From an uncultured Chloroflexia bacterium (lineage in GTDB: Bacteria > Chloroflexota > Anaerolineae > Caldilineales > Caldilineaceae): a stretch of 64,000 nt of DNA. The position numbers and the translations under genes were made by a program. Shown here in pieces: positions 17,354 through 42,301 of this stretch. The notes under the pieces are model-generated. The model worked only from the letters and a program-made list of their open reading frames with translations. It did not search any database and was not told the DNA's origin. The stretch spans positions 122,083 through 186,082 of the forward strand of contig CAVTKJ010000007.1 of NCBI GenBank assembly GCA_963735275.1, read 5' to 3'. The first letter of the stretch is position 1. Each line of letters opens with the position of its first letter.

Positions 17354-17409
17354 TCCCTACACTTGTCTTCCTGTGCGTGGAGACACTAAAGTCATGCCGG
17401 AGTGAAACC

Positions 17410-17576
17410 AACATCTCAACGCAAAGCCGCAAAGGGAACAAAGGCACGCAAAGGAGTGCAAGGTATTGACTCAGTTCAGGCAGTTGCTTTTCCTCTGCGC
17501 CCCTTTGCGGCCTCTGCGCCCCTTTGCGGCCTCTGCGCCCCTTTGCGGCCTCTGCGCCCCTTTGCGTTGAGATGTT
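17410..17576. repeat. Family A palindromic MITE-like element, copy a (167 bp, expanded)
   Basis: Termini are AACATCTCAACGCAAAG (17410-17426) and CTTTGCGTTGAGATGTT (17560-17576). The right arm holds four tandem 19-bp units CCTCTGCGCCCCTTTGCGG (17492-17567). Similarity to other copies extends about 14 bp further on both sides. Confidence 0.9.
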
Positions 17577-17609
17577 CGTAGTAGGTGTGGATTTCAACCC
17601 GATTTCACT

Positions 17610-18911
17610 TTAGACCCCGTCGGGAAGCAGCGCCAACTGCTCATCAAGGCGGCTGATCAGCGCCTGCGGCAGGACCGGCTTCTGAAGAAAGCCATTCGCA
17701 CCCAGCGAGAGCGCCAGATTCTCCAGCGGCAGGATGGAACAGATGAGGATGGCGACGTTGCGTTCGTCAAGGTACTGACGGAGCCGCACCAGGAGTTCCC
17801 AGCCATCTACTTCAGGCATCATTACATCCAGGAGGATGATGAGCGGCTGGTACCTGGCGATCTGTCGTTCGATATCATCGGGATCCGAAACGCCGACGAG
17901 CGCGTAACGCGTCTCCTGCAGAGAGCGCTGGAACAAATTGATCGTGTCGAGGTTGTCATCGATCACCAGCACAGGAACCTGCGCCAGCGCCGGGATGGTG
18001 ATCGTGACCTCCAGCCGATCCGGTGAACTGTCCACGCGATAGCTGCCACCCACGCGATCCAGCAGTTGCTTCAGGACGGCAACTCCGGGCGTGCCTGCGG
18101 CAGTCGCCGCCTGTGCGCGCGCGGGGTCCAGTTCCGCGGCGGTCTTCACTACGAGATTCTTGCTTTCAATTTGCGGGACGAGAGAGACTTGTCTTGTTTG
18201 GGCGGCGGGGATCAGCCAGCCCAGCACGATGAGAAGTGACTGCCGCAGCGTATTGGGCGGCACAAAAAGGTCAGGGAGAGCCTCGTTCGGTTCGTATCTC
18301 AAGCGGACGTCATGCTGTTCCATTAGCGGCCCAAGCAAATCAAGCACCGAATGGAACGTTGAACTCCACGCCGAGGGCGTGTCTTCGGGCAATTTCTTGA
18401 TCCACGAGGCGTCATCGGCCTCGTCGCCCCCTTCGGACTCAACACGCGCACTTGTGCTCTCGTCTGGGCCTGGCGGCGTCTCCGCCTCATAACCAGCGGT
18501 TGCGGCCTCGGCGCGTTGTGGCCCAAAATCAGGTGCGGCGCGGCTCCCCATCTGGCCTGATTCCCACAACGCAAGCGCGAGTGCAGCAATTGCGGCCTGC
18601 TGCTCGCGGCTCAATTGCCTGTCGCTGATGCCAAGTTTGCCGGCAACTTCTTCGCGCGAATAGCCCCTCACATAGCGGAGATAGAGGAGATCATGTGCCT
18701 GCCACGCCCGGGCATAGCCGGGATCATCCTGATCAGGCTTCAGGTTTTCAACGCCCGCGATAAGCGTTTTCTGGAGCGCAGCCGAAGCGTCAACCCGGCC
18801 GGAAAGGCCCAGCATTTCGATCAGCGGATTGCGGCGCAGCTGATCCAGTGCAAAGAGGTTGTTGAGGGCGCTGCGCAGGGATTTGATGAAGTCGTCGTAC
18901 TCGGTGTCCAT
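17610..18911 (-). CDS. Response regulator with N-terminal sigma-70 region-4-like HTH and a degenerate HATPase-like middle domain
   Basis: ORF 17610..18911. The N-terminus YLRYVRGYSREEVAGKLGISDRQLSREQQAAIAALALAL is HTH-like. The middle region LRQSLLIVLGWLI ... GGSYRVDSSPDRLEVTITIP resembles a kinase ATP-binding fold without clear G-boxes. The C-terminal REC is canonical (VLVIDDN...ILLDVMMPEVDG...ICS...QKP). Confidence 0.8.
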   Translation of the reverse strand: MDTEYDDFIKSLRSALNNLFALDQLRRNPLIEMLGLSGRVDASAALQKTLIAGVENLKPDQDDPGYARAWQAHDLLYLRYVRGYSREEVAGKLGISDRQLSREQQAAIAALALALWESGQMGSRAAPDFGPQRAEAATAGYEAETPPGPDESTSARVESEGGDEADDASWIKKLPEDTPSAWSSTFHSVLDLLGPLMEQHDVRLRYEPNEALPDLFVPPNTLRQSLLIVLGWLIPAAQTRQVSLVPQIESKNLVVKTAAELDPARAQAATAAGTPGVAVLKQLLDRVGGSYRVDSSPDRLEVTITIPALAQVPVLVIDDNLDTINLFQRSLQETRYALVGVSDPDDIERQIARYQPLIILLDVMMPEVDGWELLVRLRQYLDERNVAILICSILPLENLALSLGANGFLQKPVLPQALISRLDEQLALLPDGV

Positions 18912-20141: not shown

Positions 20142-21085
20142 GCGCAGAAAAAACGACGGACACGGTGACGGCTGCAAAGCGCAGCCCCAAGCCTAAAACG
20201 CGGATACGCGAAACCGGCGCTGACCTCACGTTCACCATTATCAATACCTCCCTGCTGATCGCCGTCTTCATCGCGGTGCTCTACCCGCTGGTCTGGGTGG
20301 TGAGCGCGTCCTTCAGCGATCCTGTTGCCGTGAGTTCGGGAAAGGTTGTACTTTGGCCAGTCGACTTCACGATCAAGGCCTACCGGACGATTTTCGGCTA
20401 CGGTCGCATCTGGAGCGGCTACATGAATTCGATCTTCTATGCCGTGGTAGGCACATTCGTAAACGTCGCCATGACCATACTGGCGGCCTACCCACTCTCC
20501 CGCATGGACTTGTTCGGCAGAAACGTCATCATGTCCCTGTTTATCTTTTCACTCATGTTCAGCGGTGGCCTTATCCCCTTCTTTCTGGTGGTGAACAAAC
20601 TGGGCATGTACAACACGCGCTGGGCGATGATCCTGCCCCAGGCGCTCTCCGTGTGGAACATGATCATTGCGATTACATTCTTCCGTACGTCGTTTCCTCC
20701 GGAACTGCTGGAAGCGGCGCAACTGGACGGATGCAACGACTTTCAGTACCTGCGCAAGATCGTCCTGCCACTTTCGGGCCCCATCATCGCCGTGCTGGCG
20801 CTCTTCTATGCAGTGGGCCACTGGAACCAGTATTTCACGGCGCTAATTTTCCTGGCCAACAAGGACCTCTTCCCCCTGCAACTGGTGCTGCGCGACATTC
20901 TGATTGCCAACACGATCGACTTGAACATGCTTGAGGATGCCAAGACGATGGCGGCCAAGGCCGGCATGCGCGATCTTCTCAAGTTCGGGTTGATCGTCGT
21001 TTCGTCGGTCCCTGTTCTGCTCCTCTATCCCTTTGTACAGAAGCACTTTGTCAAGGGGCTGATGATCGGATCGATCAAGGGATAA
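20135..21085 (+). CDS. Sugar ABC transporter permease (LplC-type)
   Basis: ORF 20135..21085; its start overlaps the upstream stop. EAA-loop-like region ELLEAAQLDGCNDFQYLRKIVLPLSGP. Six predicted TM segments. Confidence 0.9.
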   Translation: MVSAEKTTDTVTAAKRSPKPKTRIRETGADLTFTIINTSLLIAVFIAVLYPLVWVVSASFSDPVAVSSGKVVLWPVDFTIKAYRTIFGYGRIWSGYMNSIFYAVVGTFVNVAMTILAAYPLSRMDLFGRNVIMSLFIFSLMFSGGLIPFFLVVNKLGMYNTRWAMILPQALSVWNMIIAITFFRTSFPPELLEAAQLDGCNDFQYLRKIVLPLSGPIIAVLALFYAVGHWNQYFTALIFLANKDLFPLQLVLRDILIANTIDLNMLEDAKTMAAKAGMRDLLKFGLIVVSSVPVLLLYPFVQKHFVKGLMIGSIKG

Positions 21086-23026: not shown

Positions 23027-23086
23027 CTTCAAGGTGCGCAGACAGCCTGTGCTTTGATCGAGAAGTGAGAGTGAAGTTCATCGTCT

Positions 23087-23134
23087 GCATGATGGAACTC
23101 TTCCCGCCTTGGGGCGGGAAGAGTTCCATCATGC
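23087..23134. repeat. Perfect 22-bp-stem hairpin (loop TTGG) between the binding-protein and fucosidase genes
   Basis: GCATGATGGAACTCTTCCCGCC (23087-23108), loop TTGG, then GGCGGGAAGAGTTCCATCATGC (23113-23134), an exact complement. No U-tract follows. Confidence 0.9.
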
Positions 23135-23169
23135 GCCCGGCAATCGCCGCGCCTGAATCGTCAAATGCA

Positions 23170-24477
23170 ATGGAATCTGGAAGCTGTCCAACGGAAACCA
23201 TCAACCAGGAAGATCGCAAGGAGCGTTTTGTGGCAGCCAAGCAAATTTCGGCGAAGGGGCTGGAGCAGTATTACGATAACCGCTTTGGCATGTTTATCCA
23301 TTGGGGTATCTATACGTTTATGGGCTACTCGGAACGCGACTATCTGGCCGAATGGGCCATGCACGGCGAAAGCATCCCCGTTGCCGAGTACGAGAAACTC
23401 GTGCCCCAGTTCAACCCGACCCAATTCGACGCCGACGAGTGGGTGAGCATTGCTGCCGACGCCGGCCAGAAGTACATGATGTTCACAACCCGCCATCATG
23501 ACGGTTTCAGCATGTATGACACGGCGCTGAGCGACTACAAAGTGACGAACACCCCCTTTGGCCGCGACCCCCTTGCCGAGCTTGCCAACGCCTGCGCGCG
23601 CCGCGGCGACATCAAGCTGGGCATGTATTCATCGGTCATGGACTGGCATCACCCCGCCTACCGCTTCCGCGAAGAGAACGGCCTGGCCTGGTCGGACTAT
23701 GTGGATTTTCTGCACGGGCAGGTGCGCGAGCTTTGCACCAACTACGGCGACGTTGCCGGCTTCTGGTTTGATGGCGACTGGCCCAACCACCCCATGGACG
23801 AGACGAATGCATATTTCCTGGGCGGCGGCAGCTTCGAGTACGAGAAGCTCTACGACATGATTCACACGCTGCAGCCTGAGGCCTACATTATGAATAATCG
23901 CCACGACAAGCCACTGCCGGGCGAGGATATTCAGGGCTTTGAGCAGGATCTGCCCGGCGAGAACAGCACCGGCTTCAATGAAACGACGATTTACGATATC
24001 GGGCTTGAAGTCTCTCAGACCATGTGTGACAACTGGGGCTATCACGCGGTGGACGACAATCACAAGTCCACCCACCGCATGCTCTCTGAACTCGTCAAGT
24101 CGGCCAGCATGAACGCAAACTACCTGCTCAATGTAGGCCCCACAGCGGATGGCCTCATCCTGCCAATTCATGTGGAGCGCCTGCGCGAAATGGGTGCGTG
24201 GCTGGACGTCTACGGCGAGTCCATCTACGGCACACGTGCGGGCAAAATTTCAAGCCCGGGCGGCTTCTCCACCAGCAGGGGCAACACGCACTATGTCTTT
24301 GCACCGCGCTACGAGGTCGACCGCATCTATCTCGATTCGCTGCCGGAGAGCGTGATGGAAGTCTCTCTGCTCAAGGATGGCTCCCGGCTGGAAATCAAGA
24401 GACGCCGTGGACGACCTTTCGTCACCGTGCCGGCCGCACTGCGCGACCCGCTGATTACTGTGCTCAAGCTGCAGTAG
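23170..24477 (+). CDS. Alpha-L-fucosidase, GH29 (copy 1)
   Basis: ORF 23065..24477. Motifs: [52 protein letters not shown]. The start is ambiguous: ATG 23170, or GTG 23230 which is preceded by AAGGAG. The ORF portion upstream of 23170 is the hairpin and is not coding. Confidence 0.85.
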
Positions 24478-24607: not shown

Positions 24608-25891
24608 TTGGACAGTCAACACACTGAAAGCAAGGAGAGATTTGTGGCAGCCAAACAGATTTCAGCCAAGGGGCTGGAGCAGTTCTTTGACAATCGCTTT
24701 GGGATGTTCATCCATTGGGGGCTCTATTCAATCATGGGGCGCTCGGGCCGCGAAAGCCTGGCCGAATGGGTCATGTATGGCGAAAATATCCCGGTTCCCG
24801 AGTATGAGAAGCTCGTCCCGCAGTTCAACCCCGTCAAGTTCAACGCCGACGAGTGGGTGAGCATTGCCGCCGACGCCGGCCAGAAGTACATGATCTACAC
24901 GAGCCGCCATCATGACGGCTTCAGCATGTATGACACGGCGCTGAGCGACTACAAGGTGACGAACACCCCCTTTGGCCGCGACCCCCTTGCCGAGCTTGCC
25001 AACGCCTGCGCGCGCCGCGGCGACATCAAGCTGGGCATGTATTCATCCGTCATGGACTGGCACCACCCCGCCTATCGTTTCCCCAAGGAGAGCGGCTTGC
25101 CCTGGTCCGATTACCTTGACTTTCTGCACGGGCAGGTGCGCGAGCTCTGCACCAACTACGGCGAGATTGCGGGCATCTGGTTTGACGGTGACTGGCCACA
25201 CCATGTCATCGACGAGAGCAATGCCTACTTCCTCGGCGGCGGCAGCTTCGAGTACGAGAAGCTCTACGACATGATTCACACGCTGCAGCCAGATGCCTAT
25301 GTCCACAACAATCGCCATGAAGAGCCGCTGCCCGGCGAGGACGTCCAGGGCTTTGAGCAGGATCTGCCCGGCGAGAACAGCACCGGCTTCAATGCAACGA
25401 CAATCTACGACATGCCTGTTGAAGTCTGCATGACGATCAACGACAATTGGGGCTTCCATTCGCTCGATGACAACCACAAGTCAACGCGCCGGCTTCTTAC
25501 CAATTTGATCCGTTCGGCCGGCATGAACGCAAATTACCTGCTCAACGTTGGCCCCACCGCGGAAGGAATTATTGTGCCGGCGCATGTTGAGCGCCTGCGC
25601 GAGATGGGTGAATGGCTGCGCGTCAATGGCGAGGCGATCTACGGCGCGCGCGCCGGCGCAATTGCTTCTCCTGGTGGCGTCTCCACAAGCAAAGGCGACA
25701 CGCACTATGTGCATGCGCTCCAGTACGACAGTGACCGCGTCTACTTCGAGTCACTGCCCGAGAGTGTTCACGAGGCAAGCCTGCTTGCCAATGGTGAGCC
25801 TCTCGAACTGAAGGTTTCCAAGGGGCGGCCCTTCGTGACCGTGCCGGCAGAGATGCGCGATCAGTATGCAACGGTGATTAAGCTGCAGTAG
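24608..25891 (+). CDS. Alpha-L-fucosidase, GH29 (copy 2, tandem paralogue)
   Basis: ORF 24608..25891 with a TTG start; the alternative is GTG 24644 after AAGGAG. Collinear with copy 1 and mostly identical by eye. From the GTG, both copies are exactly 1248 nt. Confidence 0.85.
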
Positions 25892-25930
25892 GCAGAGACA
25901 GCCCGAGCAATTCTGTACAAAATGACAAGC

Positions 25931-25969
25931 GGGGCTGGTTGAAGCGGGTATACCGCCAAAACCAGCCCC
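25931..25969 (+). terminator. Possible terminator hairpin after the fucosidase pair
   Basis: GGGGCTGGTT (25931-25940) pairs with AACCAGCCCC (25960-25969) around a 19-nt loop, followed by CTTTCTGTC. The large loop and weak U-tract keep confidence low. Confidence 0.35.
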
Positions 25970-25976
25970 CTTTCTG

Positions 25977-26526
25977 TCGCGCAAGGACAACCAGCCTATC
26001 TTGCGTCAGGCTGTGGACGAGCATTTTGCCTTTGCGCTTGAGCGCCTGCCTGCCGATGCGCCGGTGCTGGCTGAACTGCAAACAGTCGCAGGCGACCACG
26101 GCCGCATGGACATTCGTGAATACGTCATCACGGAAGATGTAAGCTGGTTGCCTGCTGTGACGGGCAAGCCGCTTTGACCGGGTGTGCGCTCGATTGGCAT
26201 GGTGCGCTCCCTGCGCGTGGTCAACGACAGAGAGCACCTTCCCTCGCTACTAAATCACTTTGCTGCCAGCCGACGCCAAAGTGTTCGCCAACGCCGTGCG
26301 CTCGCACTGGTGTGTCGAGAACCAATTGCACTGGGTGCTTGATGTGGCCTTTGACCAGGACAATAACCACACGCGCAGCGGTCACTCCGCGTATAACCAG
26401 GCCATCCTCCAGACTATCGGCCTCAACCTGCTCAAACAAGAGCGATCCAAAAAGATCGGCATCAGGAATCGCAGACTCTGCGCCGCCTGGGACAACGCCT
26501 ATCTCGCCAAGCTGCTCTTCAACTAG
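25977..26526 (+). pseudogene. ISAs1-family (H-repeat type) transposase remnant, C-terminal half only, decayed
   Basis: My translation gives KDNQPILRQAVDEHF...HGRMDIREYVITEDVSWL...KPL-stop(TGA 26175-26177, where W is expected)-PGVRSIGMV.... A frame change follows near 26235, then TFPRY-stop(TAA 26251-26253)-ITLLPADAKVFANAVRSHWCVENQLHWVLDVAFDQD...LNLLKQE (ORF 26260..26526). The catalytic N-terminal half is missing. Confidence 0.75.
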
Positions 26527-26636
26527 ATACAATCGCCCTGCTAGTTAACCTGGAAGACCTTCTTTTGTCATCCTCTCAATCTCAAAGTTCGGGATGACTC
26601 ATGTGAAACCCTTCCTTACTCGAGGGCAACGGTGTC

Positions 26637-26687
26637 AGTCGGCTTCAGCGGACTTGAGTTGGATAGCCGTGGGCTTTGGCCCACGGC
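26637..26687 (+). repeat. Family E two-hairpin module, copy E1
   Basis: AGTCGGC-TTCA-GCGGACT (7-bp stem, one G.G mismatch), linker TGAGTTGGATA, then GCCGTGGGC-TTTG-GCCCACGGC (9-bp stem). Confidence 0.85.
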
Positions 26688-26850
26688 GGCCCCCGGCGAC
26701 CTTCCGCCACTACCGTAACAACTTGGCAATGTTCTTCAGCCGCCATACTCAAGCAGGTAGCCTGATATTCACCTACGACAGCTGAAGCAGCCGCTACAAT
26801 TCATTCGCACACCTGCAAGATGCAGCACCAAAGCCAAACCGGGATGTATT

Positions 26851-31119: not shown

Positions 31120-31178
31120 GCGCGTGAAAGGCGTCTCGATCGCCGATTGCACTCCGCCACAGATGTATACTGAACCCG

Positions 31179-31218
31179 GTCAACCAGTCAACCAGTCAAC
31201 CAGTCAACCAGTCAACCA
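31179..31218. repeat. Tandem 8-mer GTCAACCA x5
   Basis: Five exact contiguous units between the epimerase stop (31119) and the GH130 start (31271). GTCAACCA is contained in the reverse complement of the 16-mer array unit at 36110-36304. Confidence 0.95.
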
Positions 31219-31270
31219 ATTTTCGGTTATTCTTCATCGGTCGCCCATCCACCGCCCCACGGAATCCCCA

Positions 31271-32476: not shown

Positions 32477-34954
32477 CGATCGTACAGCAGCTGGATTCAC
32501 AGGAAGGCAGTTGGGAGTTTCGCGATGCAGGGGGAGATGACTGGCTGCCGGCCTCGGTGCCAGGCTGCGTTCACACGGATTTGATGGCCGCAGGCAAGAT
32601 TCTCGACCCATTCGTGGCGGATAACGAACTTGGCGTGCAGTGGGTGGCGCGCAAGGATTGGGAGTACCGGCGCACGTTTGTGTGCGACCCCGAGCTGCTT
32701 GACGGGGGCCAGCCTGTCGAACTCGTCTGCGAAGGACTCGACACGCTGGCGACGGTCTTCGTCAACGGCCTCGCAGTAGGCTCGGCCGATAACATGTTTC
32801 GCACCTGGCGTTTTGACGTCACCCATGCGCTGCGGTCCGGCGCCAATGAACTGCGCGTGCGTTTCGCCTCCGCCGTGGAGTGGTGCGCCGCGCGTGCCGC
32901 CGAGCGGGCGCTCCCGCAGGCCAACGAGTTCTTCCCGGGCGCGCCCAACCTGCGCAAGGCGCCCTATCACTTTGGCTGGGATTGGGGCCCCATGCTGCCG
33001 ACGGCGGGCATCTGGCGAACGCTGCGCCTCGAGGCCGGCGCGCGCCTGACTGATGTCCACCTGCGTCAGGTTCATGCGGAGGGGGCCGTGACCGTTGTCG
33101 CGGAGGTTGCTGCAGAGGCGCAGATGAACTGGCGCACACAGATGCGCATCACTTCGCCCGGCGGCGCGGTGTTGGAAAGCGAAGCGCCCCTTGAAGGAGG
33201 CAGCGCTGTTGTGGAGATTGCGATCGCCGACCCGCAACTCTGGTGGCCGAATGGCCTTGGCGAACATCCGCTCTATCAGGTTGAGGTACTTCTCATCAAT
33301 GGAGAAGGCCGCGAACTCGACAGACGCACTATGCGCATCGGCCTGCGCACAATCGAACTGCGCCAGGAAGCCGACAAGTGGGGGCGATCCTTCACCTTCG
33401 TCGTCAACGACGTTCCCCTCTTCGCCAAAGGGGCCAACTGGATCCCCGCCGATTCCTTTCCGAGCCGCGTTACCCCTGCGATCTACGCGAATCTGCTTGG
33501 CGCCGCAGCCGCTGCCCACATGAACATGATCCGCGTATGGGGCGGCGGCATCTACGAGGACGAAGCTTTCTACGACCTCTGCGACGAGCAGGGACTGCTG
33601 GTCTGGCACGATTTCATGTTCGCCTGCTCGGTCTACCCCTTCCACGATCCCGCCTTTCTCGACACCGTCGCGCATGAAGTTGCCGACAATGTGCGCCGCG
33701 TTCGCCACCGCGCCTGCCTCGCGCTCTGGTGCGGCAACAACGAGATGGAGGCAGGCTGGGTTGGTTGGGGCTGGAACCGCCCCGATACACAAGACCTCAA
33801 ACAGGCCGACCAGCGTTTCTTCTACGAGATTCTGCGTGACCAACTGGCCGATCTTGATCCCGACAACGCGTATTGGCCCAGTTCACCTTCCTCCGGCCTG
33901 CCCCACACCGCGCCGCAGAGCGATCAGACCGGCGATACCCATCGCTGGGAGGTATGGCACGAGTTGCTTTCCTACTCACACTACCGCAAGCAGACCCCAC
34001 GCTTCGTCAGCGAGTTCGGTTTTCAGTCGCTGCCGCCGCTGGAAACCATCTCGACCTACGCCCCGCCGGCAGCGTGGAACATGACTTCGTACCTCATGGA
34101 GCATCACCAGCGCAACACCGACGGCAACGGGCGCATCGTCGCCTATCTCACGCGCACCTTTCAGTTGCCGCGGGACTTCCCTGCGCTCGTCTACCTCACC
34201 CAGGTGCAGCAGGCCGAGGCCATGCGCACGGGGGTGGAGCATTGGCGGCGGCAGTGGCCACGCACGGCAGGCGCGCTCTACTGGCAGATCAACGACTGCT
34301 GGCCTGTCGCATCCTGGTCGAGCATTGACAGCTTTGGGCGGTGGAAGATGCTGCACCACGCGGCGCGCCGTTTCTTTGCGCCGCTGCTTCTATCGGTGGA
34401 AGACGAGGGCATGGTGATGTCAGTCTGGCTCAACAACGACCTCCCCACGCCGTGGACGGGCACTGTGCGCTGGAGCGTCGAAACGCTTGAGGGTGATCCA
34501 CTCGCACAGGATGAAGTTGACGTTGCGATTGACGGCGTCTCGTCACAAATGCTTTGCCGCGTGGATTGTGCGGCCCTTGTGCCCGAGGGCGCGGCGCCGG
34601 CGCGAAACGATCTTCGTCGCCGAACTGCGCGACGAATCAGGTGCGCGCATTGGGATGTGTGTTGCGCCCTTCGCACCCAACAAGCACGTGGCCCTGCGCG
34701 ACCCGCAGATCCGGACGACAATTGAGGAGGCGGGCGACAGCATCCTGCTGCATCTCGAAGCGCGCTCGCTTGCGCGCTTCGTCGATCTGTCGCTGGAAGG
34801 TGTTGAAGCCGCGGAGGTGATCCCGAGCGACAACGGCTTCGACTTGCCCGCAGGGCGGCCCTGCACGATCACGCTGCCGCGCCCGGCCGGATGGGGTCGC
34901 AACGAGGTCCAGACCGCGCTGCGCATCCGCAGCCTGCGCGACAGCTATACCTAA
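32473..34954 (+). CDS. GH2 beta-mannosidase; frame broken once near 34595
   Basis: The ATG overlaps the GH130 stop (ATGA). ORF 32473..34725 carries the GH2 sugar-binding, Ig-like and TIM-barrel regions ([46 protein letters not shown]). The true C-terminus continues in ORF 34487..34954 ([17 protein letters not shown]...). No signal peptide. Confidence 0.85.
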
Positions 34955-34987
34955 AGGGAAATCGGGCTGAAAACCACAGCTACTACG

Positions 34988-35114
34988 AACATCTCAACGC
35001 AAAGACGCGGAGGCCGCAAAGGAGCGCAGAGGAAGAGCAACTGCCTGAGGTGAGTCAAGTCGTTGCAGTTCTTTGCGATTCTTGGCGTCCTCCGCGTCTT
35101 TGCGTTGAGCTGTT
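34988..35114. repeat. Family A element, copy c (127 bp)
   Basis: AACATCTCAACGCAAAGACGCGGAGG...CCTCCGCGTCTTTGCGTTGAGCTGTT. It begins 34 nt after the beta-mannosidase stop and ends 33 nt before the YitT start. Confidence 0.9.
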
Positions 35115-35146
35115 CGTGGTGCTGTTGTTCTTTAGCCGGTACGCCC

Positions 35147-36079
35147 ATGTCGAAAGGCTCTTGCTTGGCAACGCAGCCTCCCACATCCCCGAAACCACCC
35201 GGACTGATCCGCCGCGAATGGCGCAATGTGCTGCTGCTGGTTGCGGGCGTCACGGTGCAGGCGTTCGCCTATGCGGCGTTCCAGGTGCCGTACAACATTG
35301 CTGCGGGCGGCATCAGTGGGCTGAGCCTCGTCGTCAACAATTTCCTTCCCAACATTCCCGTTGGAACGATCTACTTCCTTCTCAATGTGCCCCTCTTTGT
35401 GCTTGGCTTTTTCAATCTGGGGCGCTGGCAATTCCTTGCCAAAACGCTTGCCGCCGTCACCCTCTTCTCGGTGCTCACCAATGTCTTTGTCGCCGCGCTG
35501 CCGCAGGTGGTGAGCCAAACGCCGCTCACGCAGAACATTCTGCTCAGCGCACTCTACGGGGCGATTCTGGGCGGGTTGGGTGGGGGGCTCATCTATCGCT
35601 CAGGGGCGAGCGCAGGCGGCACGAGCATCCTCGGGCGTGTGGTGCAGTTGCGCACCGGCATTCCGCTCAGCCAGGTGCTGCTCATGACGGACGGCATCAT
35701 CGTCGCCCTCATGGGGCTGGTCTTTGGCTGGGAAAACGCGCTCTACGCCCTGCTGATGCTCTTCCTCTGGGGCATGGCCGCCGACTATGCGCTCGAAGGT
35801 CCCGGAACTGTGCGCACAGTGACGATTGTCACCGAGCAGCCCGAGCCGGTCATCCTCGCGCTGCGTGAGCAACTGGGGCGCACGGTGAGCCACTGGCCCG
35901 TTACCGGCGGCTACAGCGGCGCGCCCAGGCAGATGCTCTTCTGCACGGTTCACCGGCCGCAAGTGGAGCAGCTTCGGCGCGTCATCCTTGCGGCAGACCC
36001 AAACGCGTTCTTCGTGGTGGGCGATGCGCACAACGCCGTGGGAGGTGGCTTTGGGGGCGTGCGGGGGGAGAGGCCGTGA
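35147..36079 (+). CDS. YitT-family membrane protein with C-terminal DUF2179 domain
   Basis: In-frame ATG 35147 within ORF 35063..36079. Motifs: AFAYAAFQVPYNIAAGGISGLSLVV, GGTSILGRVV. The C-terminal soluble domain TIVTEQPEPVILALREQLGRTVSHWPVTGGYSG is DUF2179-like. Confidence 0.8.
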   Translation: MSKGSCLATQPPTSPKPPGLIRREWRNVLLLVAGVTVQAFAYAAFQVPYNIAAGGISGLSLVVNNFLPNIPVGTIYFLLNVPLFVLGFFNLGRWQFLAKTLAAVTLFSVLTNVFVAALPQVVSQTPLTQNILLSALYGAILGGLGGGLIYRSGASAGGTSILGRVVQLRTGIPLSQVLLMTDGIIVALMGLVFGWENALYALLMLFLWGMAADYALEGPGTVRTVTIVTEQPEPVILALREQLGRTVSHWPVTGGYSGAPRQMLFCTVHRPQVEQLRRVILAADPNAFFVVGDAHNAVGGGFGGVRGERP

Positions 36080-36109
36080 GGGTGACTGATAATTGAGAAT
36101 TGATGATTG

Positions 36110-36304
36110 GGGTGATTGGTTGACTGGGTGATTCGTTGACTGGGTGATTGGTTGACTGGGTGATTGGTCGACTGGGTGATTCGTTGACTGGGTGATTCGT
36201 TGACTGGGTGATTCGTTGACTGGGTGATTGGTTGACTGGGTGATTGGTGATTCGTTGACTGGTTGATTCGTTGACTGGTGATCGTGACTGGTGATTCGTT
36301 GACT
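36110..36304. repeat. Tandem array of about 12 units of the 16-mer GGGTGATT(G/C)GTTGACT
   Basis: Starts 31 nt after the YitT stop. Units 1-8 are exactly 16 nt (36110-36237). The last four are degenerate or partly deleted. There are no spacers between units. Confidence 0.95.
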
Positions 36305-36420
36305 GCCGAGAACGGATGAACGTTGATCTGCGCCGGGGGGTGCGCAACGTTCATTGACAGGGGGCCAAGTCCGCGATATCCGCATACCCGATCCGCGTCT
36401 CGCAATTGCACGGATGCTTG

Positions 36421-36499
36421 CGTAGCGGGGGGCTTCCAGCCCTCCGTTTCAAGATCGGGTTAAGCGAGCGGCCGGAGGGCGCGGAAGCCCTCCGCTACG
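36421..36499. repeat. Family C GC-rich palindrome, copy C1 (imperfect)
   Basis: CGTAGCGGGGGGCTTCCAGCCCTCCG (36421-36446) faces CGGAGGGCGCGGAAGCCCTCCGCTACG (36473-36499). The left arm is identical to copy C2. Confidence 0.85.
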
Positions 36500-37633: not shown

Positions 37634-37687
37634 GGGGAAAGTTCCAGACACCAAAGGGAAACCAGGATGATATCCGCACTTACTGCG

Positions 37688-37814
37688 AACATCTCAACGC
37701 AAAGTCGCAGAGGGCGCAAAGGAACGCAGAGGAAAAGCAACTGAATGGTATTCGTAGATTCGTTGCAGTCCTTTGCGTTTCTTTGCGTCCTCCGCGTCTT
37801 TGCGTTGAGATGTT
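37688..37814. repeat. Family A element, copy d (127 bp)
   Basis: AACATCTCAACGCAAAGTCGCAGAGG...CCTCCGCGTCTTTGCGTTGAGATGTT, between two minus-strand genes. Confidence 0.9.
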
Positions 37815-37834
37815 GATCTGGTGCCGGAGTGATT

Positions 37835-38770
37835 CTAGACAGGCTCGGCCAGGTAGTTGGCAACGGCCGGATTGGCGGCAAGTTCTTCGGCCACGTGGAC
37901 GGGCAGCCCCACAAGCGGCGGGCGCACGGTGCGCCAGGAGGGGTCATCCCAGCGGCGCGCGACGATCTCCTTGAGCGCCGCAATGACGGGGAAGGGAGCC
38001 AGCGCCGTGCGCAGCGCATTGAGGTCGTCCTGAATCTGGTCCGCCTCGGGCGATTGCCACTGGTCGTACAAGTTGCGAATTGGGCCCGGGATAATGTTGG
38101 CCAGCGCCGTGATCGTCCCCACGCCGCCGCTGCGCAGCGTCTGCAGCAGCAACTTTTCCGAACCGGCAAAGGTGCCGAAGCCGGGGAACTGCTCGAGCAG
38201 CACGGTCAGATTCTGCACATCGCCCGAACTGTCCTTGATCCCCACCACCGTCTGCGGGAAGATGCTCTTGAGCCGCTCAATGAGTGCCGGGCTGAAGCCC
38301 ACCTGCGCAATCGGCGGGATATGGTAGAGGTAGACACGCAACCTGTCATCGGCCACGCGGTCAATCACCTCGGCCACGGCGCGGAAGATGCCTTCGTCGC
38401 TGATGCCCTTGTAGTAAAAGGGGGGCAGCATGAGCACGCCGCCGCACCCGGCTTCGGTGGCATGGCGGGCGAGCATGGTCGTATCGGTGAAGGCGCAGCA
38501 GCCCACGCCCACAATCATCTGAGCGGGGGGCAGGCCGCCGTCAATCATGGCTTCAAGCGTCTGCATACGCTCTGCGGCGGAGAAAGAGTTGGCCTCGCTG
38601 GTCGTGCCGAAGGGCGCGAGGCCATGGCAGCCATTTTCGAGCAGCCAGCGCCCATGCGCAACCAGCCGTTTGGCGTCAGGCGCATAGGTATCGGTGACGG
38701 GGGTGAGAATCGGCGCGTAGACGCCGCGCATGGGTTCGGGTCGAATCATGTTGCCAGGCTCCAGGTTCAT
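37835..38770 (-). CDS. Dihydrodipicolinate synthase/N-acetylneuraminate lyase-family aldolase
   Basis: ORF 37835..38770. Motifs: GVYAPILTPV, GLAPFGTTSE, YLYHIPP, and the Schiff-base lysine block VVGIKDSSGD. The specific substrate cannot be called. Confidence 0.8.
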   Translation of the reverse strand: MNLEPGNMIRPEPMRGVYAPILTPVTDTYAPDAKRLVAHGRWLLENGCHGLAPFGTTSEANSFSAAERMQTLEAMIDGGLPPAQMIVGVGCCAFTDTTMLARHATEAGCGGVLMLPPFYYKGISDEGIFRAVAEVIDRVADDRLRVYLYHIPPIAQVGFSPALIERLKSIFPQTVVGIKDSSGDVQNLTVLLEQFPGFGTFAGSEKLLLQTLRSGGVGTITALANIIPGPIRNLYDQWQSPEADQIQDDLNALRTALAPFPVIAALKEIVARRWDDPSWRTVRPPLVGLPVHVAEELAANPAVANYLAEPV

Positions 38771-38897
38771 TGCACGTTGGGAATGCGAAATGGTGCGGGT
38801 TTTGCCCTCATTCTAGCACATGGCAGCGCCGCTGTGCGCCGAACGCTCAATCGAAGGTACAATAGGCCAAACTTCCTGACAACGAAAGGCGTAATCC

Positions 38898-39877
38898 ATG
38901 AAAGTACTGGTCACTGGCGGTGCAGGCTATATCGGTTCCATTGTGGTGGAGGAACTTGTCGCGGCAGGCGAGGAGGTCGTCGTCTTCGATAACCTCTACC
39001 AAGGGCACCGCGCGGCTGTACACCCGGACGCCATCTTTGTGGAGGGGGACCTGCACAACCGTGCGGCAATTGACACCGCGTTGGCGGCGCATCGGCCGGA
39101 TGCAATCATGCACTTCGCCTCCTACACACTTGTCGGTGAATCCATGGAGCAGCCGCTCAAGTATGTGGGCGACAATGTGCTCTGCGGCATCAATCTCTTT
39201 GGCAGCGCGGTGGAAAACGGCGTGCGGCGGGTGATTGTCTCGTCGACGGCCAACCTCTTCGACGATCCGGAGCGCATGCCGATTGACGAGGATGAGCGCA
39301 TTGTACCCGGCAGCCCCTACGGCGAATCCAAGTACATGCTTGAGCGCATCCTCTACTGGCTTGACCGCACCGACAAGCTTCATTACGGTGCGCTGCGCTA
39401 CTTCAACGCCGCCGGCGCGAGCCCGACGCCGCGGCGAGGACCATGCGCCGGAGATGCACATCATTCCCCTTGTCCTGCAGGTGGCCATGGGCCAGCGCAA
39501 GTCGATCAAGATCTTTGGCGACGACTACCCGACGCGCGACGGCACCTGCGTGCGCGACTACATCCACGTGCTGGACCTGGCGCAGGCGCACATTCTTGCC
39601 CTGCGCGCGCTCGATGCGGGCAGCCGCACCTACAACCTGGGCAACGGCGAAGGCTTCACCGTGCGCGAGGTTATCGAGATGGCGCGTGAGATTACCGGTC
39701 ACCCGATTCCCGCCGAAGTTGTGGCGCGCCGCCCTGGTGACCCGGCAATCCTCATTGCCAGCAGCGACAAGATTCGCCGCGAACTGGGCTGGACGCCCCA
39801 GCTACGCCGACCTGCGCTCGATTTTGGAGAGCGCGTGGATCTGGCACTCGACCCACCCGGACGGCTACGGCGCGTAG
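38898..39877 (+). CDS. galE: UDP-glucose 4-epimerase; frame broken near 39428 and 39801
   Basis: [25 protein letters not shown] (YxxxK) and RYFNAAGA are in ORF 38898..39689. [14 protein letters not shown]...[14 protein letters not shown]...RRPGDPA is in ORF 39235..40101. [22 protein letters not shown] is in ORF 39443..39877. Confidence 0.85.
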
Positions 39878-39966
39878 AGGCGTGGGTCGAGGCTGGATGC
39901 GCAGCGGTTTGTCAGCAAGGTGCGCTACAGCACCGAATCATCCCAATGTCAGACCGGCACGAGAAG

Positions 39967-40093
39967 AACATCTCAACCCAAAGCCGAAGAGAGAGCAAAG
40001 AAACGCAAAGGACTGCAACGAATCGACTCATTCCTGGCAGTTGCTTTTCCTTTGCGTTTCTTTGCGTCCTCCGCGACTTTGCGTTGAGATGTT
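39967..40093. repeat. Family A element, copy e (127 bp)
   Basis: AACATCTCAACCCAAAGCCGAAGAGAG...CCTCCGCGACTTTGCGTTGAGATGTT. Opposite orientation to copies c and d, judged from the asymmetric outer flanks. Confidence 0.9.
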
Positions 40094-40142
40094 CGCAGTA
40101 AATGTGGATGCCATACCGGTTTCAGTCTAGAAAGCCCGCTTT

Positions 40143-41615
40143 ATGTCCGACACCGACAAGCAGGGGCAACCAGCCAAACCGCAGACGCCGGACGGTGTCG
40201 ATTCGGTCAAGGCTGACCCCAAAGACGAAATCACCAACAGTGAGCACACGATCACCGTCAATGGGCGACAGATCGACTATACGGCCACTGCCGGGCGTGT
40301 GGTCATGCGCACGGAGGAGGGCAAGCCGCGCGCACAGATCTTCTTTGTCGCCTATACGCGGTCGGACGTGGGCAATGCCGCCGAGCGTCCAATCACCTTC
40401 TCCTTCAACGGCGGGCCGGGTTCCTCTTCTGTATGGATGCACCTGGGGCTGCTTGGCCCCCGGCGTGTGCTCTCGGGCGACGTCGACACGCCGCAGCCGC
40501 CTCCCTACCAGCTTGTGGACAACGAGTTCACGCTGCTGGAAGCCTCCGACCTTGTCTTCATCGATCCGGTGAGCACCGGCTTCAGCCGCGCCACCACGGG
40601 CGAAGATGCCACGCAGTTTCACGGCATTACGCAGGATGTGGAGTCCGTGGGCGACTTCATTCGCCTCTACGTGTCGCGCGCCAGGCGCTGGCGCTCGCCC
40701 AAGTATCTGATTGGCGAGTCCTACGGGACGACGCGCGCCGCGGGACTTTCGGGCTATCTGCAGGATCGACACGGCATGTTCCTCAATGGCATCATGCTCG
40801 TTTCAACGGCGCTCGATTTCATGGCGCTTGAGTTCGAGTTGGGCAATGATCTGCCCAACGTGCTTTATCTGCCCACGTATACGGCAACGGCCTGGTATCA
40901 CAAGCGCCTTGCGCCCGACCTGCAGGCGGACCTTGACAAGACTCTTGCCGAAGCCGAGGCCTTTGCCGAGGGTGAGTATGCGACTGCGCTGCTGCGCGGC
41001 AACAAGCTCTCCGCCGCCGAGCGAGCGGCATTGGCGCAGAAAGTGGCGCGCTACACCGGGCTCTCGCCCGAATTTGTGGAGCGATCCAACCTGCGCATCG
41101 AAATATTCCGCTTCTGCAAGGAATTGCTGCGCGACCAGCGGCGCACGGTCGGCCGTCTCGATAGCCGCTTTACCGGCATCGACCGCGATGGCACCGGTGC
41201 GGAGTTTGGTTACGATCCGGCCTATTCGTTCATCCAGGGAAGCTACACGGCCACGCTCAATGACTACGTGCGCAGAGAGCTGCGCTTCGAGAGCGACCTT
41301 CCCTACGAAGTGTTGGCAAGCCTCTACACCAGATGGGATTACAGCGCCTACCAGAATCGCTATGTCAACGTGGCCGAAACGCTGCGCGACGCAATGAGCA
41401 AGAATCCCCACCTGCGCGTCTATGTGGCGCAAGGCATCTACGATTTCGCCACGCCCTACTTTGCCAGCGAGCACACCTTCAACCATCTGGAACTTGATCC
41501 GAGCCTTGAGGGCAACATCGAGCGCCACCGCTTCGCCGCAGGGCACATGATGTACGTTCACGCCGACTCGCTTGCGGAGATGTATGGGCAGTTGGTGGCG
41601 TTTGTGGGGAAGTAG
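40143..41615 (+). CDS. Peptidase S10 (serine carboxypeptidase) family protein
   Basis: ORF 40143..41615. Motifs: ITFSFNGGPGSSSVWMHLG and the nucleophile block YLIGESYGTTRA. The C-terminal HMMY region is consistent with the catalytic His. Confidence 0.85.
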   Translation: MSDTDKQGQPAKPQTPDGVDSVKADPKDEITNSEHTITVNGRQIDYTATAGRVVMRTEEGKPRAQIFFVAYTRSDVGNAAERPITFSFNGGPGSSSVWMHLGLLGPRRVLSGDVDTPQPPPYQLVDNEFTLLEASDLVFIDPVSTGFSRATTGEDATQFHGITQDVESVGDFIRLYVSRARRWRSPKYLIGESYGTTRAAGLSGYLQDRHGMFLNGIMLVSTALDFMALEFELGNDLPNVLYLPTYTATAWYHKRLAPDLQADLDKTLAEAEAFAEGEYATALLRGNKLSAAERAALAQKVARYTGLSPEFVERSNLRIEIFRFCKELLRDQRRTVGRLDSRFTGIDRDGTGAEFGYDPAYSFIQGSYTATLNDYVRRELRFESDLPYEVLASLYTRWDYSAYQNRYVNVAETLRDAMSKNPHLRVYVAQGIYDFATPYFASEHTFNHLELDPSLEGNIERHRFAAGHMMYVHADSLAEMYGQLVAFVGK

Positions 41616-41617
41616 GT

Positions 41618-41647
41618 GGGTGATTTGTTGATCTGGGTGATTGGGTG
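41618..41647. repeat. Two degenerate units of the GGGTGATTNGTTGA 16-mer
   Basis: GGGTGATTTGTTGATC TGGGTGATTGGGTG starts 3 nt after the S10 stop codon. Confidence 0.8.
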
Positions 41648-41691
41648 CCACGTCTTGCAAGAGCATTGCGGTAACGTAGCGGCTGCTTCAG

Positions 41692-41734
41692 CTGCCGTCC
41701 TTGCCAATCGCACCGTATCCCGGGCCGACGGCAG
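41692..41734. repeat. Family D hairpin repeat, copy D1
   Basis: CTGCCGTC-CTTGCCAATCGCACCGTATCCCGGGCC-GACGGCAG. Differs from D2 at one position in the shared 43 nt. Confidence 0.85.
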
Positions 41735-41839
41735 TTGTTGAGCATTGTAGAAATAGTTGGGTATGCGCCGCGCCGCGATTGCCGCCATGGGCCAATGAAC
41801 ATTGTCGAGATCGTTCGGTACAGGCCCGCCGCGGCAACC

Positions 41840-41890
41840 GCCATAGGCTAAAGCCTACGGCTATCCAACCCAAGCCTGCTGAAGCAGGCT
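41840..41890 (-). repeat. Family E two-hairpin module, copy E2 (inverted orientation)
   Basis: The minus strand reads AGCCTGC-TTCA-GCAGGCT, linker TGGGTTGGATA, GCCGTAGGC-TTTA-GCCTATGGC. The single non-Watson-Crick position is G.T on this strand and A.C on the other. Confidence 0.85.
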
Positions 41891-41921
41891 GAACCCCTAT
41901 TTCTCTCGAGGCGACGGTGTC

Positions 41922-41972
41922 AGTCGGCTTCAGCCGACTTGGGTTGAATAGCTGCAGGCTTGAGCCTGCAGC
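41922..41972 (+). repeat. Family E two-hairpin module, copy E3
   Basis: AGTCGGC-TTCA-GCCGACT, linker TGGGTTGAATA, GCTGCAGGC-TTGA-GCCTGCAGC. It sits head-to-head with E2 around CTCGAG (41905-41910). Confidence 0.85.
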
Positions 41973-42021
41973 GGCGGCCGCGGCAAAGTGATTGTGCCGG
42001 ACTATACTGGAAACGCCGATC

Positions 42022-42068
42022 AGCTGCCGTCCTTGCCAATCGCACCGCATCCCGGGCCGACGGCAGCT
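42022..42068. repeat. Family D hairpin repeat, copy D2
   Basis: AGCTGCCGTC-CTTGCCAATCGCACCGCATCCCGGGCC-GACGGCAGCT (10-bp stem). Confidence 0.85.
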
Positions 42069-42099
42069 AAATGCTGCATCTCGCAAAAAACTCGCATTA

Positions 42100-42169
42100 C
42101 GTAGCGGGGGGCTTCCAGCCCTCCGACCTTTCGGCACAACTGCCGGAGGGCTGGAAGCCCCCCGCTACG
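42100..42169. repeat. Family C GC-rich palindrome, copy C2 (perfect 26-bp stem, 18-nt loop)
   Basis: CGTAGCGGGGGGCTTCCAGCCCTCCG (42100-42125) and its exact reverse complement (42144-42169). Confidence 0.9.
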
Positions 42170-42301
42170 ATTCATAGGCACACTTGCAAGACGCAGCACT
42201 AAAGCAGCCGCTACAAAACGCCGACGCACTTGCGAGATACAGCACATAGTGCTACTTCGTACCTCCTGTACACTTCACCTGCAGCAGCCCGGAGACGGTC
42301 C

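Follow-up and report, generated by a model that had tools for sequence, protein, structure and literature searches.

The window, that is the whole 64-kb stretch of DNA analyzed here, contains three 51-nt two-hairpin modules: E1 at 26637-26687 (+), E2 at 41840-41890 (-) and E3 at 41922-41972 (+). Each consists of a 7-bp stem closed by a TTCA loop (hairpin 1), an 11-nt linker and a 9-bp stem closed by a TTNN loop (hairpin 2). E1 is a solo arm near a fucosidase gene, an IS remnant and a thiolase gene; E2 and E3 form the left and right arms of a head-to-head pair, near a peptidase S10 gene and a gene of unknown function. The first-pass annotation had described three copies at these coordinates with a shared architecture, and this description was borne out on re-reading the sequence and by pattern and covariance-model matches. 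The core pattern TTCAGCNNNCTTGRGTTGRATAGC, with up to three mismatches allowed, occurs in the window at E1, E2 and E3 only, where 0.00 sites are expected from 100 shuffles. Covariance models detect the three modules at 67-79 bits (E ~1e-14 to 1e-20), with 74.6 bits for E1, 78.8 bits for E2 and 76 bits for E3; with filters off, no further module above 16 bits was found in the 64 kb, and a broader second model, R2, recovered exactly three copies within the window. Chance origin of the three copies is thus excluded. The minimum-free-energy fold of every window module consists of both predicted hairpins.

In E1, hairpin 1 reads AGTCGGC/TTCA/GCGGACT and carries one G.G mismatch, a detail added to the earlier description; the linker is TGAGTTGGATA and hairpin 2 is GCCGTGGGC/TTTG/GCCCACGGC. 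The stem differences previously quoted between copies are correct, as is the single G.T pair in E2. The repeat unit exceeds 51 nt. On the inner (upstream) side, E1 and E3 have approximately 37 nt in common, the inner flank of E1 (26600-26636, +) being homologous to the E2-E3 spacer at the inner side of E3. On the outer (downstream) side, E1 and E2 share approximately 55 nt beyond the module: the outer flank of E1 (26688-26745, +), with the pattern GGCGG..CCG..TACCG.A..CAATGTTC..GCC, is about 70% alike to that of E2 (41766-41839, -), within which positions 41771-41795 are a partial direct duplicate of 41827-41851. The 31-nt spacer between E2 and E3 (41891-41921) lacks symmetry and shows homology to the DNA upstream of E1, and the outer flank of E3, GGCGGCCGCGGCAAAGTGATTGTGCCGGAC (41973-42003, +), is shorter than those of E1 and E2. 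Taken together, E2 and E3 lie within 65-nt inverted arms, 41828-41892 and 41920-41984, which are 80% complementary and 27 nt apart.

E1 lies roughly 110 nt past the stop codon of a transposase pseudogene of the ISAs1 family (25920-26540), which is the only transposase domain found in a Pfam scan of the window ORFs. The pseudogene retains only the C-terminal ~200 aa, interrupted by frameshifts and stops, and abuts the fucosidase stop codon; its right end reads ...CGCCCTG. Its closest relative, at 81% identity, is a multi-copy IS (L016-L019) from metagenomes that also hold the closest relatives of the window. ISAs1 elements generate target duplications of 8-10 bp, and this, together with the proximity to the transposase, could be taken to mean that E1 is the right-end part of this IS and that the pairs are its deletion derivatives. 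However, homology to the full IS copies stops at ...GATACAATCGCCCTG, at window position 26540 and 97 nt before E1, which is the canonical ISAs1 end, CAGGG/CCCTG. Near the full copies in L016-L019, moreover, the best module score was 8 bits, and model R2 had no match at all in L016. E1 was therefore rejected as an ISAs1 end, and an ISAs1 origin of the modules has, in our estimation, a negligible probability. On the other side of the pseudogene, two alpha-L-fucosidase paralogues stand in tandem (23065-24477 and 24608-25891), with a period of 1414 bp and stretches that are 72-83% identical.

The surroundings of the E2-E3 pair are rich in other repeats. Two 47-nt direct repeats, 41688-41734 (+) and 42020-42066 (+), are 98% identical and enclose a 285-nt segment that bears the pair; searches of the window and of selected loci turned up no other good copy. 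These two direct repeats could stem from a segmental duplication or from a long duplication of the target, or be yet another repeat. A separate family of REP-like palindromes tagged with GTAG occurs at 41676-41697 (+), 26776-26797 (-), 42100-42169 and 36421-36499, and in the related locus L004 at 5901-5926 and 20878-20903. These palindromes take two forms, GTAGCGGCTGC-TTCA-GCTGCCG and a long hairpin GTAGCGGGGGGCTTCCAGCCCTCCG...CGGAGGGCTGGAAGCCCCCCGCTAC, and the 26-nt half shows 100% identity to its counterpart in a relative with a peptidase S10 identity of just 82%, a degree of conservation that suggests an active REP/RAYT-type system in the lineage of the window. A further repeat, CCGCTAC..GCACACTTGCAAGAYGCAGCAC, is present at 26782-26828, 42153-42199 and 42199-42245, and inverted at 41653-41691; it flanks the E2-E3 region on both sides in inverted orientation and is also found beside E1. 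With this placement, at least three repeat families are nested in a mosaic across the whole spacer at 41.65-42.25 kb. In relatives, an isochorismatase gene is followed by the peptidase S10 gene and then, after 76-113 nt, by purM-purN, whereas in the window repeat-rich DNA and unrelated genes stand in place of both neighbors of the peptidase S10 gene. Because purM follows the peptidase in relatives, the repeat-rich 686-nt spacer of the window (41616-42301, compared with 11507-11618 in L004 and 8245-8320 in L049) lies at a synteny breakpoint, which the repeats thus mark in the window genome.

Repeats of other kinds are found elsewhere in the window. A large inverted-repeat family with CTTTGCG/CGCAAAG periodicity occupies 17386-17614, 34951-35137, 37653-37838 and 39945-40130. 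Two of its arms, each of 175 nt (37658-37832 and 39949-40123; 83% complementary and 2.1 kb apart), surround a 387-aa ORF at 37829-38992 that has no Pfam match, and this inverted-repeat pair and its ORF may be another mobile element. A tandem array at 36078-36308 has an 8-nt period, GGGTGATT/GGTTGACT, with about 17 registers, and the complementary unit, CAACCAGT, recurs in a shorter array 5 kb upstream (31174-31230).

A scan of one genome per species matched the core exactly only once, in L001, a metagenome-assembled genome (MAG) labeled Chloroflexia bacterium. The first-pass annotation had proposed that more copies be collected, and covariance-model searches outside the window yielded 12 additional modules, eight within 8 kb of L001 and four in L007, so that 15 modules from three genomes were available in total. 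L001 and L007 are metagenome-derived genomes related to Ca. Chlorohelix; they are syntenic, with ArsA proteins that are 95% identical, and the L001 protein shares 76% identity with the ArsA of Ca. Chlorohelix. The nearest named homologues of the window proteins are from Chloroflexota MAGs, at 62-64% identity. Relatives of the window genome (L004, L005, L006, L016 and L049, whose peptidase S10 is 82-85% identical to that of the window) contributed approximately 58 kb to the search and relatives of L001 (L012-L015, L020 and L021, with ArsA identities of 76-91%) approximately 90 kb, and no module was present in either set. Among metagenome contigs the core pattern returned two chance matches only, in L002 and L003, both AT-rich and without hairpins. 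Viral contigs gave no match to the strict pattern and 27 matches to a looser one, all scoring at most 16 bits with the covariance model, and BLAST of the window pair and the L007 element against plasmids and phages gave no match. Other palindromic repeats were also seen in the Chlorohelix-like MAGs, at L001 4890-4990 (site A) and at L007 1795-1815/L001 5000-5030; one is a G+C-rich inverted repeat, AGGCGGCGCGTCCCCGC...GCGTGGGGATGCGCCGCCT, and the other a repeat containing GCTAGTTAGAGA that abuts module pairs in both genomes.

The copies are arranged in a consistent manner. All seven pairs among the 15 modules are inverted head-to-head, (-)(+), with 3-40 nt between the arms, and E1 is the sole unpaired module; at L001 2972-3200, four modules of alternating orientation form a BIME-like cluster. 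The pairs are intergenic and their neighbor genes, which near the L001 pairs encode GrpE, an Hsp70-like protein, DUF1257, ArsA, transketolase, a hydrolase and UbiA, bear no relation from locus to locus. Comparison of L001, L007 and L020 revealed four polymorphic orthologous sites in all. At three of these intergenic sites a pair is present in L001, while the L007 counterparts are empty (14-107 nt) and L020 is also empty; at the fourth, a pair is present in L007 and the L001 site is empty. The short, empty form also occurs in L020, which is more distantly related, and the filled state is accordingly the derived one. The element is thus inserted as a single unit into intergenic DNA and is gained or lost between very close genomes.

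The L007 pair at the fourth site provides a clean view of one such insertion. It is 188 bp long (12033-12220) and is bounded by 21-nt terminal inverted repeats, 12033-12053 and 12199-12219, consisting of GGTGAAGTTCATATTTTTGCA and the reverse complement of GGTGAGGTGCATAATTTTGCA, which agree at 18 of 21 positions. A 10-bp target duplication, CTTGTACTTA, directly flanks the insert on either side, and the empty L001 site contains the duplicated 10-mer once, as CTTGTATTTA. The same insert is also found in two other assemblies, L008 and L009, and a terminus of the L007 type lies outside two of the L001 pairs, at 2902 and 7177. The L007 insertion bears the signature of a non-autonomous transposable element that inserted at a staggered cut, with the terminal repeats and target duplication being clean at this one site, outside the window, and blurred at the others. 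In the window itself, the L007 terminal repeat is absent even when five mismatches are allowed, and the E2-E3 pair has no target duplication, only the 65-nt internal inverted arms being recognizable. No empty orthologous site for E2-E3 exists among the relatives, owing to the broken synteny at this position. Neither the window ORFs (Pfam scan) nor the other loci examined contain an autonomous parent IS or transposase for the element. Based on these observations, we conclude that the modules very probably belong to a mobile, non-autonomous repeat.

The two-hairpin shape with covariation, in a Chloroflexota-like genome, had raised the possibility of the Chloroflexi-1 motif, or of some other gene-specific cis-regulatory or small RNA. 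Rfam 15 gave no match at the gathering threshold across the whole window, and relaxed searches (E<=10 for 41600-42250; E<=1 for L001) gave only spurious matches of miRNA precursors to long hairpins. The seed of Chloroflexi-1 (RF01698) consists of three 85-nt sequences from Chloroflexus aggregans, with a 16-bp interrupted hairpin closed by the loop CAUUGGCC and followed by a 5-bp hairpin, and was itself suspected by its authors to be a repetitive element (Weinberg et al. 2010, PMC2864571 and its supplement). It has no motif in common with the AGYCNGC-TTCA-...-TGGGTTGGATA-... module, and identity with Chloroflexi-1 was rejected on these grounds. Nor do the modules behave as an RNA gene tied to one locus: neighbor genes differ between loci, orthologous sites are empty, and the modules are the arms of a mobile element with terminal repeats, target duplication and presence/absence polymorphism. 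A gene-specific RNA of either kind is, in our view, practically discounted. The first-pass annotation had also envisaged that the copies might turn out to be terminal-repeat fragments of an IS or MITE already known; they do resemble the arms of a MITE, although the element is not a known one.

The stems are preserved as structures. Fifteen modules were aligned by hand, and as many copies are related by descent, the counts that follow overstate the number of independent events. The stems comprise 205 Watson-Crick pairs, 12 G.T pairs, no A.C pair and 7 other mismatches. Hairpin 1 occurs with ten distinct stem sequences, six of its seven pairs being changed on both sides, and 99% of its cells are paired; in the short form of hairpin 2, 93.8% of cells are paired and both sides have changed in five of nine pairs. 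None of 500 shuffles attained the observed percentage paired, the observed number of cells changed on both sides or the observed covariation score, while the counts of pairs or of pair types were not outstanding against the shuffles in every alignment. When partners were slid by 1-3 columns, pairing collapsed to 21-57%. In some L001 and L007 copies hairpin 2 is replaced by a longer stem of about 19 pairs, such that the hairpin is kept and its length varies. The loops and the linker, by comparison, are conserved in sequence, with mean pairwise identities of 0.83 (loops) and 0.78 (linker) versus 0.64 for the stems, as calculated from the seven gapless copies of the window and L001. The linker measures 11-12 nt across copies, and hairpin 2 is preceded by NTAG, which is mostly ATAG, in some copies CTAG or TTAG, and GTAG in one of 15. 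We are accordingly highly confident that the stems are under structural constraint. The earlier proposal that structure is selected holds, at least in the sense of strong maintenance, given heavy covariation with pairing kept in 15 copies from three genomes, and so does the conservation of loops and linker above that of the stems.

Compensation of this kind might also be produced mutationally, by template switching in quasi-palindromes, which copies changes from one hairpin arm to the other and thereby mimics selection for pairing. Each stem is a DNA palindrome in which double changes are the rule, and the elements are non-coding and dispensable, as such a process would allow. It leaves unexplained, however, that loops and linker are conserved above the stems, that the architecture, with 7 bp and a 4-nt loop, a linker of 11-12 nt and then a second stem, is common to a genome of 61% G+C and to genomes of 51% G+C, and that single-sided changes on one strand are G.T and never A.C. 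We regard mutational upkeep as very unlikely.

Two further features indicate which structure is maintained. First, pairing within the arms is kept at 148 of 152 stem positions, compared with identity between the two arms of a pair at only 103 of 152, so that the local hairpins are what is maintained, and not a long duplex between the arms; as a free single strand, the whole pair would nevertheless prefer one long hairpin (-101 kcal/mol, calculated as RNA; z = -10). Second, the wobble noted previously in E2 generalizes into a strand bias, 12 G.T pairs against no A.C pair, which amounts to about six independent events (p ~0.02-0.03 under strand symmetry). This bias says that the strand that folds is, in each arm, the one that runs 5' to 3' from the center to the tip. 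The suggestion that the wobble points to RNA does not follow from it, because folded single-stranded DNA fits equally well.

The bias is nonetheless what a constraint at the RNA level predicts, and the hairpins could act in RNA by stabilizing or processing mRNA 3' ends, as REP, ERIC or Correia elements do. In that case the distal arm would always be sense in a read-through transcript, whichever the direction of insertion, since the head-to-head symmetry ensures one sense arm on either transcript. Strong covariation with conserved unpaired bases and the location of the elements in intergenic DNA adjoining gene ends are in keeping with such a role. On the other hand, DNA hairpins, too, tolerate G.T better than any other mismatch; scans of the modules revealed no promoter-like or terminator-like signal and no T-run; and a full read-through RNA would form one long duplex rather than local hairpins. 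Copies are gained and lost between near-identical genomes, so selection by the host for each individual copy is unlikely. Finally, both ends display the strand feature in mirror image, which is expected if a transposon is processed symmetrically at its ends. We therefore consider a function in RNA rather unlikely, although it is the chief rival of the reading proposed below.

Single-stranded DNA is the substrate of a second candidate system, in which a head-to-head, REP-like dimer (REPIN) would be moved by a RAYT (HUH/Y1) enzyme instead of being a MITE moved by a DDE transposase. The G.T bias on one strand agrees with an enzyme that recognizes single-stranded DNA; all pairs are head-to-head, and in some of them the arms differ greatly and the 'spacer' contains stem-loops; the NTAG before hairpin 2 is invariably present; and the cluster at L001 2972-3200 is of the BIME type. 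The window genome, moreover, has true GTAG-tagged palindromes, which indicates that a RAYT may be present there. Yet the tag is neither GTAG nor CGTC in 14 of the 15 copies, and searches for Y1_Tnp (RAYT) gave no match among the ORFs of the window or of L001. At the clean insertion, 21-bp terminal repeats lie external to the hairpins and the target is duplicated over 10 bp; HUH/Y1 transposition of the IS200/IS605 type is not known to yield either. A REPIN moved by RAYT is, as judged by these observations, improbable.

We propose instead that the modules are the subterminal arms of a small non-coding transposable repeat that is MITE-like with REPIN/BIME-like traits, a reading to which we assign a probability of roughly 55%. 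The complete element is approximately 190 bp long and consists of a terminal inverted repeat, hairpin 2, a linker of 11-12 nt and hairpin 1, followed by a spacer of 3-40 nt and then by the mirror image of those four parts; as a consequence of this plan, the 5' ends of both modules face each other. E1 would be a solo arm left by truncation, its partner having been lost, and E2-E3 an old and degraded complete element within the mosaic of other palindromic repeats at the synteny breakpoint. As copies are dispensable and polymorphic, selection on the hairpins more plausibly concerns the spread of the element than a benefit to the host.

The hairpins themselves may then be cis signals required for propagation by a transposase supplied in trans. 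The transposase would recognize these signals on the strand that ends 3' at the transposon tip, either as folded single-stranded DNA or in extruded form, with the conserved loops and linker as its putative contact surface. The mirroring of a strand-specific feature at both ends resembles transposon-end processing and favors cis-acting signals of this type. No DDE-type enzyme, the kind associated with terminal repeats and target duplications, is known to depend on folded subterminal hairpins, and this mechanistic part of the proposal is consequently without direct precedent. That the hairpins have a role in mobilization as folded DNA is, in our assessment, somewhat short of an even bet. A still stronger version, in which the enzyme that mobilizes a hybrid transposon recognizes the two-hairpin module on a specific strand and the module is selected for its structure, is speculative and rather improbable. 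The hybrid would combine cut-and-paste MITE ends with REP-like folded single-stranded signals in each arm, read as DNA or as an end-derived RNA cofactor, and these signals would have been preserved across distant lineages of Chloroflexota.

The element represents a previously undescribed family of mobile palindromic repeats of small size in Chloroflexota, relatives of the phototroph Ca. Chlorohelix among them. Annotators are also cautioned that covariation in a short motif of two hairpins, even when strong, does not suffice for calling an RNA gene. In addition, the family is a neat case in which local arm hairpins are maintained while the arms drift apart and the G.T bias is one-sided, a combination that indicates function in the form of a folded single strand. 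Only one feature is in our view worth following, namely that the arms are conserved in structure alone and on a specific strand, and if the mobilizing enzyme is found, structure-specific end recognition by an element with terminal repeats and target duplication becomes testable.

The family is hitherto undescribed and was found in a few Chloroflexota genomes, and the kind of element is already known. Of the systems it resembles, Chloroflexi-1 likewise has few copies and two covarying hairpins, is a suspected repeat and resides in Chloroflexota, but it is 85 nt long with a 16-bp stem and an unrelated sequence, and its known range is Chloroflexus aggregans only. Hairpin MITEs, namely Correia/NEMIS of Neisseria, ERIC/IRU of enterobacteria, RUP and Nezha, are likewise non-coding elements of ~100-300 bp with terminal inverted repeats and target duplication; they are intergenic, multi-copy and variable between strains, and the entire element can form a long hairpin. 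The element described here has no sequence similarity to any of them, and differs in having two compensated local hairpins per arm and arms that diverge from each other; its target duplication is 10 bp, whereas that of Correia is TA. IS200/IS605 elements share cis-acting end hairpins that are conserved in structure over sequence and read on one strand, but they lack terminal inverted repeats and target duplication, and both of their hairpins are on the same strand, where the arms here are mirror images. In the GTAG/CGTC REP superfamilies, head-to-head dimers predominate, and dimers of unlike arms, structured spacers and mosaic clusters are found (Di Nocera et al. 2013, PMC3733652). The present family resembles REP/REPIN/BIME systems in its short hairpins of variable stem, head-to-head dimers, unlike arms, structured spacers and mosaics, and in strand-specific features suggestive of single-stranded DNA recognition. 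It is set apart from them by a tag that is NTAG (mostly ATAG) instead of GTAG/CGTC, by the absence of a RAYT among the ORFs searched, by a unit of two hairpins with a conserved linker, and by the terminal repeats and 10-bp duplication that surround the dimer.
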